Assembly (NCBI GenBank): GCA_001938485.1
Contig: MQRK01196038.1
Location: 1-51,345, forward strand
Length of the DNA stretch: 51,345 bases
Source of the DNA: Girardia tigrina
Lineage: Eukaryota
Direction of reading: 5' to 3'
Below, in pieces: positions 3,257 through 51,345 of this stretch (position 1 is the first letter of the stretch; the number at the start of each line of letters is the position of its first letter). The notes beneath the pieces were generated by a model that was not told the DNA's origin, made no database searches, and saw only the letters and a program-made list of their open reading frames with translations. The translations under genes and the position numbers were made by a program.

Positions 3257-3606
3257 ATATTAAGAACATTAATTAGGTTTTCTTGCGTAGCTCGTCATCG
3301 TTCTTGATTGATAATTTTAATAATATTCTTTAACGTCTTATTATTCAAACAAATTTAAATTACAATTTAATTATTATAAAAATAATTTATACTTTAAATT
3401 TGAAATAATTTTTATTTATTTTAAGAAAATATTAAAAAATTATTTATGAAATATTAGTTTAATTTTAAAGTGATTATTTAAATTTTAATACTTGATTAAA
3501 CAACCCGACGTTTTAAAATATTTAAGATATCAATCTTCCATCTGGGTGGGGGAAACACAATCCTAAAATAACATACAATAAATACCATTCAAAAATATTC
3601 CTCACA
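3257..3606 (-). mobile_element. Solo-LTR-like repeat, family B
   Basis: Ends TATTAAGAAC ... AATATTCCTCACA, core CCATCTGGGTGGG, flanked by CCAA/CCAA (3253-3256, 3607-3610). Confidence 0.7.
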
Positions 3607-7198: not shown

Positions 7199-7240
7199 TG
7201 ATTATATATTTCGACGGTTTAAACCGACATCATCAGATCA
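7199..7240 (-). ncRNA. Minimal type I hammerhead ribozyme, Penelope-associated
   Basis: Minus strand TGAT-CTGATGA-T-GTCGGTTTAAACCGTC-GAAA-TATA-TA^ATCA: intact core boxes, 4-bp stem I, stem II with one mismatch, palindromic minimal stem III. Confidence 0.8.
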
Positions 7241-7329
7241 CTGATTATGTTCTTTTTTATTGCTTAAATATAAAAAATGAATGGTTATGTAATAATTTAC
7301 GTAAGTCTAATCGAAAACTCTTAACAAAT

Positions 7330-7620
7330 TACTTGAGCATTGATTTTAGGATCACATGATCTTATCAACAATGCTTCACATGACACTCTCTCCCAATAAT
7401 TTTTAAAATGCACAAAATCTTAAAATCATTTATGCTCATTTTACAGTTACACGTTTGTTATACTCAGCAATATCACTCTTTCCCCCGCTTTGACTGTTTT
7501 CTTGGACTCGTTTGCAGAGATGACGGGCAGTCTCTCCGATGTATGTGGCATTGCACCCATTACATGTGTATTGATAAACAATGTCCGAACAAAATGACGT
7601 TTAGTTTTGTTTTACTAAAA
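7330..7620 (-). pseudogene. Penelope-like element GIY-YIG endonuclease relic
   Basis: Manual translation DIVYQYTCNGCNATYIGETARHLCKRVQE...FKILC...WERVSCEALLIRSCDPKINAQ, with frameshifts; homologous to 26340-26780. Confidence 0.9.
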
Positions 7621-17846: not shown

Positions 17847-18385
17847 GTATTAAGAACACCAATTTGACTTTTTATATTTTTATTTTAACAACAACTTTGA
17901 TTGTCCTTAAGACAATCTTTGTCTAAAGTTTCGTACATTTGCATTCTAAACTAAATTGATTAATGAATTAATTCTTATTATTTTTTAGCAAATGTGGAAA
18001 TAAATATTTTAATAAAATATTCACTCAAAACTTATTGGATAATAATTCAAATGATAATTAATTATTTAAAAAATATTAATTTGATTTATTTATTAAATAT
18101 TGTAAAAATTAATTATCTTATTTAAAATTTTAAAATTATTTGAAATTAGAAATAAATTTAAACATTACATATTTTTTAAGAATTACATATTTTTAAGAAT
18201 TAAAATAAATAATTAAAAATTAATTAACTTATTTAAAATTTTTAAATTATTTGAAATAAGAAATAAATTTAAATATTACATATTTTTTAAGAATTACATA
18301 TTTTTAAGAATTAAAATATTAGTCATCCATCTGGGTAGGAGAGACACAATTCCAAATCAACATACACATTCAAATATTCCTCACA
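17847..18385 (-). mobile_element. Solo-LTR-like repeat, family B, with internal ~110-bp tandem duplication
   Basis: Ends GTATTAAGAACACC ... AATATTCCTCACA, flanks TGAT/TGAT; strongly similar to 25447-25870 in inverted orientation. Confidence 0.75.
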
Positions 18386-18422
18386 TGATATATTTAAAAT
18401 AAAATATTTTTTGTCCAATTTA

Positions 18423-20980: not shown

Positions 20981-21136
20981 ATCATCAGGTCACAATATGC
21001 TCTAAGTTAGCACACTAAGAGGAAGTATGACTAAAATAAATAACATTGGTGAATAAATATTATTGGTGAAATGTTTCATTCTTTAGGTATGTTTCCATAT
21101 AGTGTGTTAGCTTAGAACATTTTGTAACCTGATGAT
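20981..21136. repeat. Imperfect hairpin with ~55-bp arms
   Basis: ATCATCAGGTCACAATATGCTCTAAGTTAGCACACTA... pairs with ...TAGTGTGTTAGCTTAGAACATTTTGTAACCTGATGAT. Confidence 0.8.
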
Positions 21137-21204
21137 GGACTATTATTATCTCGAAAGGCATCGTCTTATTTTTATCCCTTGTAAATAGATTTGACTTCAC
21201 AATG

Positions 21205-24560: not shown

Positions 24561-25446
24561 GTCTTTTTATTATTTTTTATTAAAAGAAATTTACAGTTAA
24601 TTTTCCCAATATATTAAAAATAAATCAATGTCAATTTTTACAATGTATCAAAGCAATTTAAATATTTACAGAAATAATAATGCAGAAATGGAAAATAAAA
24701 TAAATCAAAGTTGTGAATTAATTTGCAGAAATTATTCTTTTTTTCTATTTTTACAATAATATTTTTTAAAGAAAATAGTTTTTTTTTCATAATTTTTCAT
24801 AATAATAAAATAGAACAGAAAAGAAGATAAATAAATAAAAAAATTTATCTATTAAAAATATAATACAGAAGTTTCCATATTATTATTATTTTATTATTAT
24901 TAATAATGTTATTAAAAGGATGAATATTTTAAATTGTTTATGGATGTCGTGTATTTATTTGAGTGTGTTGAAATTTAAAATTTAAATTTAAAAAGTAATA
25001 ATATAAAGTAATTTTGAATATATAAAATCTTCTTAAAAAATAAAATAAGCCTCTTTTTTATGTTTTAATTAAATTTATTTAAGAAGTTTGAATAATTTTA
25101 AAATTAGTTTAATTACTTTTAAATTTCATGAAATATTTTAAAATTAAAATAATGTTTAGGAAATTTGTTCGAATAATCATTATTAAAAATTTAGAAATCC
25201 TATTAATTAGAATGATGAAAAATTGTGAGAGATTCTCAGAGTTGTGATGACTCTAAATGTAATAATACTAAATGTCAGTGCTTTTAATAATTATTATTAG
25301 TATTATTATTATTTTTTATTATTAATGAAATTATGAGAGATTTAAAAGTGCAATTTGTTGATTATTTATTAATATATCTCACACTTAGTAATAAAAATCA
25401 TTATCTTTTAATAATTATTATTAGTATTATTATTATTTTTTATTAT

Positions 25447-25870
25447 TGTGAGGAATATTTTGAATGTTTGATGTTTTGTGTTTGAATGTTTATGTTGATT
25501 TGCAATTGTGTCTCTCCTACCCAGATGGATGATTAATATTTTAATTATTATAATCTGAAAATATGTAATATTTAAATTTATTTTTAAATTCAAATAATGT
25601 TAAATTTTAAATAAGTTAATTAATTTTTTAAAATTTTTAATAAATAAATCAAATTAATAGTTTTAAAATAATTAATAATCATTTTAATTTCTATCATATA
25701 AGATTTGAGTAAATATTTTAATAAATTATTTATGTCTCCGTTTGCTAAAAATAATAAAAATTAATTCATTAATCAATTTAGTTTAGAATACAATCGTACG
25801 AAAGCTTTGACAAAGATTGTCTTAAGGACAATCAGAATTGTTGTGTGAATAAAAATATGAACTTATCAAA
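25447..25870 (+). mobile_element. Family B LTR-like copy, 3'-truncated
   Basis: Starts TGTGAGGAATATTTT, contains CTCCTACCCAGATGG and shares GACAAAGATTGTCTTAAGGACAATC with 17847-18385. Confidence 0.75.
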
Positions 25871-25899
25871 TAATTATTTTAATTATGTTCAAATAGTTA

Positions 25900-26044
25900 A
25901 TCCTTTAAATTTAAATAAAAATACCAATTTCCATCTGGGTGGGAGAATCACCATTCTAAATTCAACATACTTAAATCAACATCATCATAAATCAGTCATC
26001 ATCCATACATTCGCACATTCATACAATTTAAAATATTCTTCACA
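25900..26044 (-). mobile_element. Family B partial copy, tail-to-tail with the previous copy
   Basis: TTCCATCTGGGTGGGAGAATCAC ... AAAATATTCTTCACA. Confidence 0.65.
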
Positions 26045-26230
26045 AATACTAGAAATAAAATTACTTTTGTTTATTTATAAAAAATTATTCTTTTTTAAGT
26101 GAAATCATATTGAATATTATTATCATTGTTGCCATTAATGTCGTTATTAAAATACTATATATATATATATAAATATTTAAAAAATGACGATAATGAATTT
26201 TTAAAAGTCAAAAAATTTTCGTCAGAATAT

Positions 26231-26272
26231 ATTGTGATTAATTTCGACGGATCAACCGTCATCATCAGACTG
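26231..26272 (-). ncRNA. Minimal type I hammerhead ribozyme, Penelope-associated
   Basis: Minus strand GT-CTGATGA-T-GACGG-TTGAT-CCGTC-GAAA-TTAA-TC^AC: perfect 5-bp stem II, palindromic stem III, short stem I. Confidence 0.8.
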
Positions 26273-26339
26273 AATNAACAATGATATACTCGCGTTTATA
26301 TATCAAAGCAATGTTTATGTAATCATTATGTCATTTAAA

Positions 26340-26780
26340 TCATGAAAATACTTTCAATAAAGTTGAAGAGGATGGCGTTTGGACATTGATTTTAGGATCA
26401 AAAGATTTGATCAACAATGCTTCAAACATCACCCTCTCCCAATAATTATCAAATTGTGAACACAAAATCTTAAAATTACTTACATCAACTTTACTATTCA
26501 AACAATTCTTATGTTGAGCAATATTGCTAACACTTTCTCTGCGATTATGTTCCTGAATCCGTTTACAGAGATGACGACAAGATATATACATATATATACA
26601 TAAAGTAAGCTAATACAAAGACTGGAAAAGGAGAGGTCAATTTCGCATGGACATGAAGTAGAAAAAGTACGAATCTTATTAGTTACCTGTCCCAGAAAGG
26701 GTATTGAAAAGTGGTGAGACAATTCTTTGTGCCTCTGGATGAACCAATTGGTACATATAGTTAGAAAATGCGTCTTAGTA
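26340..26780 (-). pseudogene. Penelope-like element linker plus GIY-YIG endonuclease relic
   Basis: FSIPFLGQVTNKIR; RHLCKRIQEH...SNIAQH...C...NFKIL...EALLIKSFDPKINVQ. Confidence 0.9.
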
Positions 26781-37210: not shown

Positions 37211-37324
37211 TTTGAACGCGGAGAATTTAAAAATAAAATGAATAGTATGAAACTCGTTGTGATCTCTCATTGTGGCCGAGTCAGAATATAAATGATTAAT
37301 ACAATCTACAGGGTGACGCAAAAT

Positions 37325-37651
37325 GTTTTTGTTTATTAAAATATCAATTACCAATTGCCTTTTCATTAAGGATTGTACATTTGACTAAAAAATAAATTTG
37401 TCTTAGGGACAGCTGGATATGACCACATTTATGCTTTTAGATCCAAAGCTCAACTTGAGTAGGTTTAGTCCATTATTTGGAGACTGATGGTCACGCTGTG
37501 TGCCCTTCGAATAATAATCTAATTATGGTTTTGGTCATAATGGTTCGTTTTTACATCTCGGTATCCTCTACAATCATAATTTCATCAAAAATTACCATGA
37601 TTCAGAAAAGGAAACTTGATATTTTCAATACATCAGAGATAATTATTTGTA
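37325..37651. repeat. 327-bp inverted duplicate of the right flank (39201-39527) of the adjacent transposon
   Basis: No mismatch seen on reading; the ORF track shows identical 60-aa ORFs at 37477-37659(+) and 39193-39375(-). Preceded by TA and a 16-nt TIR tip at 37309-37324. Confidence 0.95.
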
Positions 37652-39200
37652 CAGGGTGACGCAAAATAAACTCCAAGGTACTTTTCTATTGGATCTTTTT
37701 ATCCACCTACTTTTTTATAGGTAAAGTTTTTAGAATCCTGAGCGTCGCCAAATTCTGATGGTATATAAAATAAATCAAAAAAATCAAAAAAAACATCAAA
37801 AATTAAAGAAAAATTTGTGAGACGAAAAATTTAACAAGCTTTTTATTTCATAAAGCATAACAACAATTAATTATTGAATTTCAACTTGTCCTCCATCTCT
37901 AAGAAAACATTCATGCAAACGTCGTTTGTAGTCGGCCACAACGCGTTCATGAAGTACGCGGTCTCCATGGATTTCATTGGCAACTCCTTCAATCGCTGCT
38001 CTCAACTCTTCGAATGTCTTGGACGTTGTTCGCGATGATAAATTCGACCTTTCATATAGCCCCACAACCAATAGTCACATGCTGCAAGATCTAGCGAGCG
38101 AGGTGGCCATGTAACTGGAGCAGGATGCGCCCGTGTTCTGCGACCTATCCATCGATTTGGAAACTGTTGACCCAACAATTCAAGAAAATCTCCAAGAATG
38201 TGTGGCGGAGCGCCGTCATGCTGCTCAATGAGAGAATTGAGATTCGGCCAAGTTTGAAGCTCTGGAATAACGTGCTCTTCATACAATTCAGTCATCCAAC
38301 GACCATTGATTCCGCGCTCATTTCCTTGTCACTCCCAAAAGTATGGGCCAACAACACCTTCAAACCAATGAGGATTTTCATCGGCCCACATAATCCAGTC
38401 TTGACGATTGACGCTTCCGTCCAAATGAAAGTGGGCTTCATCCGTAAAAAGAAGATTGTTGAGTCTGTTTGCATCTTCATCCAATCGATCCAATTCGGTT
38501 CGAGCAAACTAAATTCGAGCGGCATAGTCGGTCTCCTCCAAGGCATGAGCCATTTGCCAATTATAGGGACGCATCTGTAAGTCTTCTTTCAAAATTCGCT
38601 GCAAGCTTCTTTGTGGCATACGAACTGTTCCGTGATCGTCTTCTTCGCTGTCAGTGTCGCCAGTTGAAACAAGTGGATTGCGTCGAGTTGATAGATGAGG
38701 ATTTGCAGTAAAGGCTTCACGGACGTCTTCAATGGCTTCTTTGGTGCGAATACGTTTTGGCTTGTTCTTTCCGCGCTTTCCATGGACACTTCCAGTCACT
38801 GGAAAATCGTCAATCCATTTTACAATGACTCTTTTTTCCGGAATTTTTGCTCGACCATTTCTTGTTTCACTTCGGAATCGAGTTTTTAGCTGCGCATAAT
38901 CATAGGCTTCCTCAATAAGCATCAAAACGAGATGAGCTTTTTACTGATCCGTATACGTCATTTGAATCAAATTTTAGGGTAAAACTTTCTAAGTTCATTT
39001 TAAAAAACGCTTGTTAAATTTTTCGTCTCAAATTTTTTTTTAATTTTTGATGTTTTTTTTGATTTTTTTGATTTATTTTATATACCATCAGAATTTGGCG
39101 ACGCTCAGGATTCTAAAAATGTATACTTTACCTATAAAAAAGTAAGTGGATAAAAATATCCAATAGAAAAGTACCTTGGAGTTTATTTTGCGTCACCCTG
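37652..39200 (-). mobile_element. Tc1/mariner-superfamily element, rosa/VS (DD41D)-like, ~190-200-bp TIRs, flanked by TA
   Basis: TIRs begin CAGGGTGACGCAAAATAAACTCC; TA at 37650-37651 and 39201-39202; transposase inside. Confidence 0.95.
37871..38961 (-). pseudogene. Transposase pseudogene with D..D46D catalytic triad
   Basis: ATG at 38961; FTDEAHFHLDG, QHDGAPPH, WIGR, WPPRSLDLAACDYWLWGYMK. In-frame TAA 38941-38943, TAG 38509-38511 and TGA 38329-38331; frameshift near 38020. Confidence 0.93.
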
Positions 39201-41978
39201 TACAAATAATTATCTCTGATGTATTGAAAATATCAAGTTTCCTTTTCTGAATCATGGTAATTTTTGATGAAATTATGATTGTAGAGGATACCGAGATGTA
39301 AAAACGAACCATTATGACCAAAACCATAATTAGATTATTATTCGAAGGGCACACAGCGTGACCATCAGTCTCCAAATAATGGACTAAACCTACTCAAGTT
39401 GAGCTTTGGATCTAAAAGCATAAATGTGGTCATATCCAGCTGTCCCTAAGACAAATTTATTTTTTAGTCAAATGTACAATCCTTAATGAAAAGGCAATTG
39501 GTAATTGATATTTTAATAAACAAAAACGTTGATAATCGGGTTGACAGTGTTTGTTTACGGGTTTATCTACGAAGACATTTTATAAACAAGCCACATTTAT
39601 TTATAAACAATAAACAATATAAAGAAAGCAAACTAAAATTCTTTTTCTAACTGAATAAAATTATGAATAATTTTCTTCTGAAAACTGTCTAAAATATAAT
39701 TATGTTTATAAAAAATAAGAATTAATAAAATAATTTATTTCTTCAAGATTTTATTTATTCCCTTCATCTTTGGTGCACCTTTGTTTCTTGACGGCGAACC
39801 CCGGGGTCATTCTGGTGCTCGTTACGAGGGGGTTGTTTATTTTTTTAAATATTTCGGAATTAATCTGAAAAAGACGGATCGGAGCCGTGAGTTGAATAAT
39901 GTGGCTCAATTCTTATCAAGATCAATGAAATTATTTTCGATTATTTATAATTATTTATATTTATAAATATTTATTTAATATATTTTAATGTCTTATAAAA
40001 TAATATATATTATTCTAGATAATATTATACATTATATTATTTATTGCTTAATTTACTACTTTTTATTGTATTTAACGAAAAAAAGATATATTTAATTAAA
40101 GTAGATATAGAATGAAATATTAATTAAAGTAATAAAAACGGAACTCTAAAAAATAATTAGTCAAATTTTATGCATTAATTATTATATATTTTATTAATAA
40201 CTTATTAAGGAAACTTAATTAAAAATCTTTATCAATTTTGAATAAACGGAATTTATTTTATTGATTAATTAATTATCTGACAAAAAATCAATAATAATAA
40301 TATATATTAAATGAATACGAAAAATAATATTTAAATATATAATTTTGAGTTTTAATTAGAAAAAAATTATATAATGAATTTTTAAATCTTTCACCTGGTG
40401 GAATTTGATTTTAAATATTACAAAATAATGGATTATTAATTAAAACCAAAAAATTTTTACGTAAATTTTTTTATTTTTTTTGTAAACAATTTTGCTTCAT
40501 AGGAATAATAATTAAATTAAAATATAATTACACATCAAAATATCTTTATTCTATATTTTTGTATTTTTATAACTAATGACTTATATTATAAATCTATATT
40601 ATTGTATTCGTTTCGACAAGTTTACACGATTTTAGTGCACCAGATATTAAAGGAATAAATTCAATTCCATCTATTTTACTTTCAAAAAGACATAATTTAA
40701 GACAAAATAATTACATGTGTAACAAGAGCTTTTTTATATTACCACGTTTTTAACGTCACTAGAAATATGATTAATTGCAAAAATATTTTATATTATTTGA
40801 ACGTTGACTACTTGTTTTCTAAAAGATAAGTATTTTTAAACAGAATTATATCAATTTTTAAGTTTTAAATTTAAAATGGTTTAGACATTGGAATTATGGT
40901 TATCAGAATAAATTCGATGTAAAATATAATTAAAATGCACAAGAGTGATTAGATGCTGCTGCTGCATTAAATTTAAATAAAAAAATAGATTTCAGTATTT
41001 TGGCCGGTTTTTTGATGCCTGTACTGTGTAATGCTATGCTTTTCCAGACTCAAAAGAATTTTCCAAAAAAATAATTGAGTTTACACACCTCTACTGTCCT
41101 CTATTATTCTATACACTTAATATATATTTTTCACTTTTGTTTCTTAATTTTTGCACTGTTTAGAATTTTTATAATCATTTTTTTCGACTATATTGTCCTT
41201 AAAATTTCAGTTTTCTATTTTAAAATATTTAATCACTCTATTCTCACTAAACAATCACAAAATACACAAATTTTTACGAAATATTTAAATAAATTAGATA
41301 TCAACTGTTTACATAAACTATTAAAATCCATATACTTTCAACAACGCCATTTATCTATGTTCTTCTTCAATTCCTATATATTTAAATTGACCGGTATAAG
41401 CGTTAACTAAAATTGATAAAATAAAATGATGAATTAAAATTAATTTATATCGTAAGATATAATCTGATTTGAGCTATTAATTATTATTAATTAACAACAA
41501 CGGAGATTCATATTTGATCAAAACAAAGATTCAAATCATTTTATTATACAAAATTTATTCATATAAATTGGGGTCTACGACAAAAACGCCGTGGACAAAA
41601 CGCCGCGGACAAAAATGGCTTAAATTAACCGACAAATTATAGAAATTTTAAATGGAGCACAATCTTTGAGTAGATAGAATGTTAATATTTTGTTTTTTAA
41701 AAAAATTTTACAAAAGTCAAAATATCTTTAAATAATAAAAATAAAAATCCATATAAAAATATTATTTTCGGAATTATTTTTATACTAATGTGGAAAAATA
41801 TTTAGTATTTATTTAATTTATTACTATTTTTAAAATTTTAGTATTAATTTATAACATTAAAAAAATAAAAATAAAAATAAAATAAATACAATAATTTATT
41901 TATAATTTATAAATATTAGAAATTAGATTAAATTATTAAATTTTTTCAATTATTTTTACGAAATAATGTTAATTAAAA

Positions 41979-44483: not shown

Positions 44484-44862
44484 CTATTAAGAACACTAAT
44501 TGGATTTTTAATAAATTTATTCAACTTGAAGCGCCAATAGGACAATTTTCCATAAAACTTTTGTAGTTAATCATCATTCTTGATTAATAAATTTTATTCT
44601 ATTTCTCAAAGTCTTATTATTTAAACAAGTTGAAATTACAATTTATTTACAATTCGATTAAAAGATAATTTATATTATTAATTAAAAAATATTTTAGATA
44701 TATTTAAATTAAGGCTCAGTTATTTAAATTTTAAAATTGAATAAATAATTCAACGTTTTGAAATATTTAAAATATCAATCTTCCATCTGGGTGGGAGAAA
44801 CACTATCCTTAAACAACAAAAGAAACAACATACAATAAGCAAAATTCAAAATATTCCTCACA
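44484..44862 (-). mobile_element. Solo-LTR-like repeat, family B
   Basis: CTATTAAGAACAC ... CCATCTGGGTGGGAGAAACAC ... AAAATATTCCTCACA; flanks AAAA/AAAA (low complexity). Confidence 0.7.
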
Positions 44863-44933
44863 AAAAAAATTTTTTCGATGGTCTGTAGTCATTCATAGAT
44901 TAATTGATATTTATTTAGCTGATATAAATATTT

Positions 44934-45117
44934 TGTCATCTAAACACGCTCAATAGGGTTTTCGAGAGACCCGTTTGCACATTAATCTTAGGATCTAAAT
45001 ATCTGATATATAGTGCTTTATTTTTTTATATAAAGCACTTTATATCAGATCTTTAGATCCTAAGATTAATGTGCAAACGGGTCTCTCGAAAACCCAATTG
45101 AGCGTGTTTAGATGACA
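44934..45117. repeat. Near-perfect 184-bp palindrome (88-bp arms, 8-nt loop)
   Basis: TGTCATCTAAACACGCTCAA...GTGCTTTAT / ATAAAGCAC...TTGAGCGTGTTTAGATGACA; 3 mismatches counted by eye. Confidence 0.95.
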
Positions 45118-45379
45118 TAATAATCCATTGATGACATAATCACTGCTTGCATATATAAGCAGATTTAAAATTCATTTTTCTTGATATAAATATTATTTTT
45201 GGAATTAATATTTGAGGTTTAATATTGTAAATATATGTGTTTGATTTAATTATTATTTTATCTATGTGATGCGTTCAATTGTTACTCGATCTGACCAGGA
45301 AAACTTGTTTAGAGACTTGAAACATTTTGCAAGAACGACTACGTCAATCTAGGTTTTTATCATTGCTTTTGTTTCACTT

Positions 45380-51003: not shown

Positions 51004-51089
51004 CATTCAAATGATTTTAATCTCTTTTTACTTTCACTGTAAATCTTTATTGTCTTTTTATTGTTTTTATTGTTTTTTTAATTTAACTT

Positions 51090-51345
51090 TGTGAGGGAAA
51101 ATTCTGAATGTTGTAAGTTTGTTGTTTTTATGCTGTTTAGATTTGTGATTCTCCTACTCAGATGGGATTGATATGTTATTTGATTAATTATTTAAATGTA
51201 ATGAGATTAATCTAATGAGATTAATTTAATGGTTTAAATACTAATTAATTGAAAAGTTTTATTATTATAAATTTTAATAATATTTTTAAGTAAAATATTT
51301 TAATAATATTTTAATTGTCACGGGTGTCAAAACTCGTACATCGGA
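51090..51345 (+). mobile_element. Divergent family B copy, 3' end not identified
   Basis: TGTGAGGGAAAATTCTGAATG ... TTGTGATTCTCCTACTCAGATGG. Confidence 0.6.

Follow-up and report, generated by a model that had tools for sequence, protein, structure and literature searches.

Dimer-cleaving small hammerheads of Penelope-like elements were reportedly described by Lunse, Weinberg and Breaker in 2017. Reviews portray these ribozymes as having a very short, palindromic stem III and cleaving as dimers, and the tandem layout of the elements has been proposed as the source of the partner (PMC6765202, PMC6466107). In the survey of PMC4209133, as far as its figures and text are accessible, families of Aedes aegypti differ in the centre of the palindrome (CGCG, GGCC and again CGCG), a swap of the same kind as that between AUUAAU and AUAUAU, and the D. 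virilis motif combines AUAUAU with a 2-bp helix I. Tails lying 3' of the hammerhead have been described (PMC8557442, PMC11167929). For the Poseidon element PAc of Anolis carolinensis, cleavage is protein-assisted, insertion proceeds from unprocessed RNA, cleavage is dispensable for insertion in vitro and, in the available part of that report, reads ending at the cut were absent (PMC11167929). The function of Penelope hammerheads is treated as still open in both PMC8557442 and PMC11167929.

The DNA analysed here is a 51,345-nucleotide stretch of the Girardia tigrina assembly (contig MQRK01196038.1; hereafter the window). A loose hammerhead descriptor found exactly two sites in the window, copy 1 and copy 2 (Table 1); over 300 dinucleotide shuffles, the mean number of matches was 0.077, with at least one match in 20 shuffles and at least two in 2. 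Rfam returned no hammerhead family match, either for the whole window at E<=5 or for a 151-nt region at E<=10. Both copies contain the core CUGANGA...GAAA...UH, an unpaired base between A9 and G10.1, a helix II opened by a G10.1-C11.1 pair, and a helix III hexamer that can pair with itself across all 6 nt. Both also have the type I topology with a short helix I, which in copy 2 amounts to only 2 contiguous pairs (GU/AC), any extension being blurred by the N in the 3' UTR, and in copy 1 to 4-5 bp (UGAU/AUCA plus one G.U). In copy 1, C3 is at 7236, and helix II is GUCGG/CCGUC with a U.U mismatch (4 bp plus U.U), closed by the 6-nt loop UUUAAA. The preliminary description had proposed a second hammerhead of the same architecture as that at 7199, with ATTAAT in place of ATATAT in stem III (both palindromic), a different stem II loop, UC instead of UA at the cleavage site and an unchanged CUGAUGA-U and GAAA core. 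These particulars were recovered, both ribozymes being on the minus strand; the likeness of architecture extends to the core and helix III, but copy 2 has the shorter helix I and copy 1 an imperfect helix II, and the ribozyme fills about 37 nt of the 370 that were quoted.

Table 1. Positions of the features at the two hammerhead loci of the window
Feature	Position	Strand	Remarks
Copy 2 ribozyme, minimal type I hammerhead	26234..26270	-	descriptor match; ~37 nt
Copy 2 helix I	26270-26269/26235-26234	-	
Copy 2 core CUGAUGA	26268-26262	-	C3 = 26268
Copy 2 extra U between A9 and G10.1	26261	-	
Copy 2 helix II	26260-26256/26250-26246	-	GACGG/CCGUC, 5 Watson-Crick pairs, loop UUGAU
Copy 2 GAA	26245-26243	-	
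Copy 2 helix III, palindrome AUUAAU	26242-26237	-	majority state in aligned contigs
Copy 2 C17	26236	-	cleavage predicted after it
5'-truncated Penelope-like element copy	26180..26581	-	endonuclease end, 3' UTR, hammerhead and tail; low end approximate
Last 80 codons of GIY-YIG endonuclease and stop codon	26340..26582	-	coding 26582-26343; stop 26340-26342
True 3' UTR, stop codon to ribozyme	26271..26339	-	from sequence; N at 26276
Tail 3' of predicted cleavage site, kept in insertion	26180..26233	-	family depth reaches about 26180-26195
Copy 1 ribozyme, minimal hammerhead, putative separate family	7199..7240	-	descriptor match
Copy 1 helix III AUAUAU	7209-7204	-	A17 at 7203
Copy 1 frameshifted GIY-YIG endonuclease remnant	7324..7600	-	IVY...YIGET motif; tblastn

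Local fold prediction gave a probability of 0.98 for the G10.1-C11.1 pair of copy 2 and of 0.07 for that of copy 1, the core of which is predicted to be buried in a hairpin. At 7229-7250 (minus strand), sequence upstream of the copy 1 ribozyme complements that copy's CUGAUGAUG core, and the predicted 9-bp hairpin would hold this ribozyme off. A degenerate hammerhead-like string on the plus strand (21129-21165), consisting of CUGAUGA, U, an imperfect helix, GAA, AGGCAU and C, starts inside an inverted repeat (20981-21136) and is followed by (TA)n. Its AGGCAU is one change short of a palindrome; we rejected it as a Penelope hammerhead, since it has neither the palindrome nor an upstream endonuclease match.

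Copy 2 is part of a 5'-truncated insertion of approximately 400 bp without a reverse transcriptase. Contig depth covers about 26176-26581, other copies run on beyond 26581 as loose ends, and TA-rich arms (26156-26176 and 26582-26602) flank the insertion. The 80 endonuclease residues are 94% identical (E 1e-39) to the C-terminus of P0001, a protein of 495 aa with an RVT_1 domain, and 66% identical to P0002, a protein scoring above the Pfam cut-off for GIY-YIG. The ribozyme starts about 70 nt past the endonuclease stop codon and, as judged through these relatives, occupies the pseudo-LTR (pLTR) position behind an ORF joining reverse transcriptase and GIY-YIG endonuclease. Read by eye, two further relatives (P0008 and P0019) have a C-terminal GIY-YIG domain with CCHH (CxxC...H...H) and DKG, and no obvious zinc-finger linker CX2-5CxxC. 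A DKG motif and a CCHH endonuclease without that linker form the pattern given for Penelope/Poseidon, and by these motifs the relatives of the copy 2 element fit it (accessible sections of PMC8557442).

Among described systems, the closest is the minimal hammerhead of PMC4209133, which in the published material available shares with our copies the core, the unpaired base between A9 and G10.1, the G10.1-C11.1 pair, the palindromic helix III and the short helix I. It likewise occurs as a single 3' motif in 5'-truncated copies, with several families per genome carrying different palindromes. Copy 2 resembles the dimer-cleaving Penelope hammerheads of PMC6765202 and PMC6466107 in its very short palindromic stem III. 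With PAc it shares a hammerhead upstream of a retained tail, AT-rich targets and an AUG at the base of helix II, 26 nt ahead of the cut; the activity of PAc was assayed, whereas that of copy 2 is predicted and its ORF start is putative (PMC11167929). The hexamer AUUAAU is absent from the 56 motifs of Fig. S3 of PMC4209133 as extracted, and host and family are new instances. The non-LTR retrozymes of animals also carry type I hammerheads, some of them dimer-dependent, but these, in the parts consulted, are short non-coding tandem repeats, whereas copy 2 is a single copy joined to endonuclease coding sequence (PMC7229834, bioRxiv 10.64898/2026.07.22.740005). Self-BLAST revealed no tandem unit at copy 2. 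An assignment of copy 2 to the retrozymes (170-400 nt non-coding tandem repeats with a canonical hammerhead) was rejected because of the single copy, the coding remnant and the lack of a tandem unit.

The two copies were described previously as diverged subfamilies. They are identical at 27/33 positions in the ribozyme, 158/221 (71% DNA identity) in the endonuclease, 41/71 (about 58%, segment 26339-26269) in the 3' UTR and 29/52 in the tail. Families are delimited by the 80% rule, and under it copies 1 and 2 would count as separate families rather than subfamilies; since copy 1 has decayed, the distance is overstated. By tblastn, the copy 1 remnant matches P0001 at 59% and 74% and P0046 at 72%, and one comparison to P0001 gives 56% identity across 52 residues. 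The surrounding UTR was said to have diverged, which is so for the true 3' UTR, but the segment from 26582 to 26343 is endonuclease coding sequence. In helix III, the outer pairs are the same in both copies, reflecting common descent, and the switch is confined to the central pair. Given two central changes, a complementary outcome has a probability of about 0.43 at 26% GC, and the comparison of the two copies by itself is thus weak evidence of selection. Selection is therefore argued from the contigs of other copies and from the published families.

Positions 26100-26660 of the window were aligned at 80% likeness with contigs of 4 of the 24 listed public runs (X1, X2, X3 and X21); runs with small word shares were left out, and X21 gave 0 reads. 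Aligned contigs numbered 9345 in X1, 6683 in X2 and 2157 in X3. X1 and X2 belong to one study, which may be the window's own source, and the 80% filter and the assembly into contigs bias the sample towards conserved copies, with depth summed over contigs. Within these sampling limits AUUAAU is the family state: it is the majority form among thousands of contigs in X1-X3, so that the situation in which most copies have a non-palindromic stem III, raised beforehand as an objection to selection, was not encountered there. AUAUAU stayed below 3% among the copy 2-like contigs of X2 and X3, with no T>A place listed. At position 17, C is replaced by A in 18-25% and by U in 2-5%, and no G17 at 3% or more was found in X1, X2 or X3. 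The other ribozyme variants among those listed fall at N7 and at two loop II positions.

Two changes touch the centre of the palindrome. An A-to-G change at 26239 (3.6, 2.6 and 11.8% in X1, X2 and X3, respectively) keeps self-pairing through U.G. A U-to-C change at 26240 (0.2, 0.2 and 6.0%) would by itself break the pairing but, if linked with the change at 26239, would restore a perfect palindrome; the phase of the two is not visible in contig depth. Listed variants that reach 3% in X1 or X2 affect 4 of the 8 free positions and 1 of the 25 constrained ones, the latter by a change that retains U.G pairs (Fisher p 0.008); the p value becomes 0.17 if all 5 unlisted X2 places are counted as constrained (20 variant rows are unlisted). 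The copy 2 ribozyme carries the family majority at all listed positions, and the 6 listed changes private to the window copy are all in the endonuclease part. These data support, at the level of sequence, a constrained dimer-type minimal hammerhead in a Penelope context. Selection on a dimer-type ribozyme, which the preliminary description had deduced from the palindromes, is likely and already published; it is borne out by the contigs and published families more than by the two copies from which it was drawn.

Loose ends at 26269 were seen in 41 contigs of X1 and 49 of X2 that have the same core preceded by a different 5' sequence; they appear to stem from a further lineage whose helix I strand differs. 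In X3, presumed to be RNA and labelled with another organism, T>C changes occur at 15 places, as against 7 and 6 in the DNA runs, several of the 15 lying in UA context at 5-12% (26239, 26240, 26320, 26443 and 26471, the palindrome centre included). This excess could reflect A-to-I editing or lineage differences.

Further copies were sought outside the window. An endonuclease search of metagenomes yielded 2 loci among 295 candidates, overlapping and near-identical, of which only L017 reaches the ribozyme; it represents a third, distant and decayed family (endonuclease 44% to the query) with the same layout, AUAUAU and A17. The endonuclease search of viral contigs gave 0/47; a core pattern that left helix III free had 18 matches in viral contigs, at 16 loci of 42-68% GC, and 0 of these had an AT-palindrome helix III. 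A stricter core pattern had one match in prokaryote genomes, which we judged to be due to chance.

In our interpretation, the copy 2 motif is quite probably the 3' pLTR minimal hammerhead of a 5'-truncated member of a high-copy Penelope-like family, with slow double-hammerhead cleavage likely in the parent element. The double hammerhead would be formed by a pair of identical copies within a single tandem transcript, the pLTR copies pairing antiparallel via the palindromic helix III and via helix I and each active site being composed of the core and helix II of one copy and the cleavage site of the other. By our own reading of the geometry, helix I would thus also form between the copies. Cleavage would be slow, probably assisted by protein, and would release unit-length RNA. 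Because the partner would be the element's own tandem duplicate, only self-complementarity would need to be selected; the central helix III pair could drift from AU to UA, and drift in helix III and helix I would, as a by-product, shut out other families. Since the tail beyond the cut site has been kept, the template of copy 2 was likely RNA uncleaved at that site.

The double-hammerhead model is that of PMC4209133 and reviews, in the parts available, and the present locus was assessed through energy estimates; contigs cannot show RNA ends. Forced into the double-hammerhead structure, the homodimers had energies of -14.2 and -11.4 kcal/mol, and copy 1 paired with copy 2 had one of +2.6 kcal/mol; in the mixed dimer, helix III has A.A and U.U mismatches (about 3 kcal/mol) and helix I is reduced to 1-2 pairs. 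The active fold lies above the predicted minimum (-25.7 versus -11.4 for the copy 2 dimer). An active fold so far above the minimum, together with the predicted sequestering of the copy 1 core, would fit a low, protein-assisted activity as in the Anolis element.

One alternative is that the motif is partly constrained as protein-coding or RT-recognition sequence, A9-U-G10.1 being the start of the downstream ORF of a tandem and cleavage being secondary; changes in helix III would then also mirror coding constraint. We think this unlikely. The ORF of the Anolis element does begin at helix II, 26 nt ahead of the cut (PMC11167929, as accessible), and in copy 2 an AUG at 26262-26260 lies at the same distance from C17 in a frame open for 30 codons, but an open frame of 27 codons has a chance probability of about 0.09. 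The best N-terminus match among 44 long relatives was equalled in 2/300 shuffles and does not reach significance once 44 tests are allowed for, and none of the three closest long relatives shows an N-terminus match. In copy 1 the frame is shifted and there is a stop at codon 4, and L017 is without the AUG. Coding would also leave the palindromy unexplained.

A second alternative starts from the earlier suggestion that different palindromes make dimerisation subfamily-specific, and holds that helix III is a selected family barcode, with co-resident families keeping distinct palindromes so that only RNAs of the same family dimerise and cleave. The two central mismatches of the mixed helix III, the different palindromes of the window's two families and the scarcity of AUAUAU in the copy 2 family speak for it, as do the 3 of 11 multi-family genomes in which all palindromes differ (PMC4209133 Fig. 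S3). In the other 8, however, families have a palindrome in common, mostly a short one with little choice; this count was made by hand from the PDF text of the 56 motifs in that figure, with the two D. virilis entries omitted, since they are a single element in a form with and a form without an intron. Moreover, copy 1, L017 and D. virilis all have AUAUAU (their hosts may differ), variants within the copy 2 family have AUUAAU in common, and the partner in the published model is a tandem copy in cis (reviews, in the parts available). Finally, the helix I mismatch has a larger predicted cost than the helix III mismatch: relative to the homodimer mean, the penalty is about 7 kcal/mol for copy 1 with L017 (helix III matched, helix I mismatched) and about 3.4 kcal/mol for copy 2 with L017 (helix III mismatched, helix I compatible), each being one comparison from a single nearest-neighbour estimate. 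A selected barcode is therefore very unlikely. On these estimates, the helix III difference probably does make dimerisation family-specific in a physical sense, with the specificity probably arising as a by-product and not as a selected code. Literature searches turned up no paper on dimers between families, which does not establish their absence from print. A wider version, in which orthogonal helix III and helix I interfaces of co-resident families are under selection as a code by which retroelements tell self from non-self, with A-to-I editing of the palindrome's central UA as a possible means of tuning, strikes us as highly improbable.

That the difference between AUAUAU and AUUAAU arose by post-insertion neutral decay or slippage in AT-rich DNA, the palindromy being due to chance, is hardly credible: the base composition, the chance of a 4-nt palindrome (0.095) and of the central swap, and the frameshift in copy 1 would allow it, but the agreement of the copy 2 ribozyme with the family majority, the confinement of private changes to the endonuclease, the recurrence of AUAUAU in L017 and a published consensus over 56 motifs that includes palindromy (PMC4209133, as accessible) are against it.

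Returning to the double-hammerhead interpretation, the palindrome swap between families is an already published pattern (PMC4209133, as extracted), and our locus adds one family and one hexamer to the described class. Copies 1 and 2 are a handy natural pair for telling the contributions of helix III and helix I apart in mixed dimers; published families already supply such pairs, and the question does not become newly testable through them.

The window contains other element remnants. A broken endonuclease fragment of the P0002 family (32993-32776, minus strand) stops short of the C-terminus, and a fold-back at 44929-45122 has 93-nt arms, 96% complementary, which are built from endonuclease sequence of a third Penelope family, namely its final ~26 codons (about 61-65% to P0001). 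The endonuclease fragments at 32993-32776 and 44942-45109 lack a hammerhead core, and none follows the fold-back, which caused a spurious mir-944 match in Rfam. Terminal inverted repeats of about 500 bp, 97.5% identical, at 37322-39530 enclose broken ORFs (38002-38940) that gave no Pfam match and that, by motif, we take to resemble a Tc1/mariner transposase. A dispersed non-coding MITE-like repeat with internal inverted similarity is found at 3287-3606, 17871-18401, 25440-25981, 44563-44869 and 51058-51316, and one of its copies lies next to copy 2.
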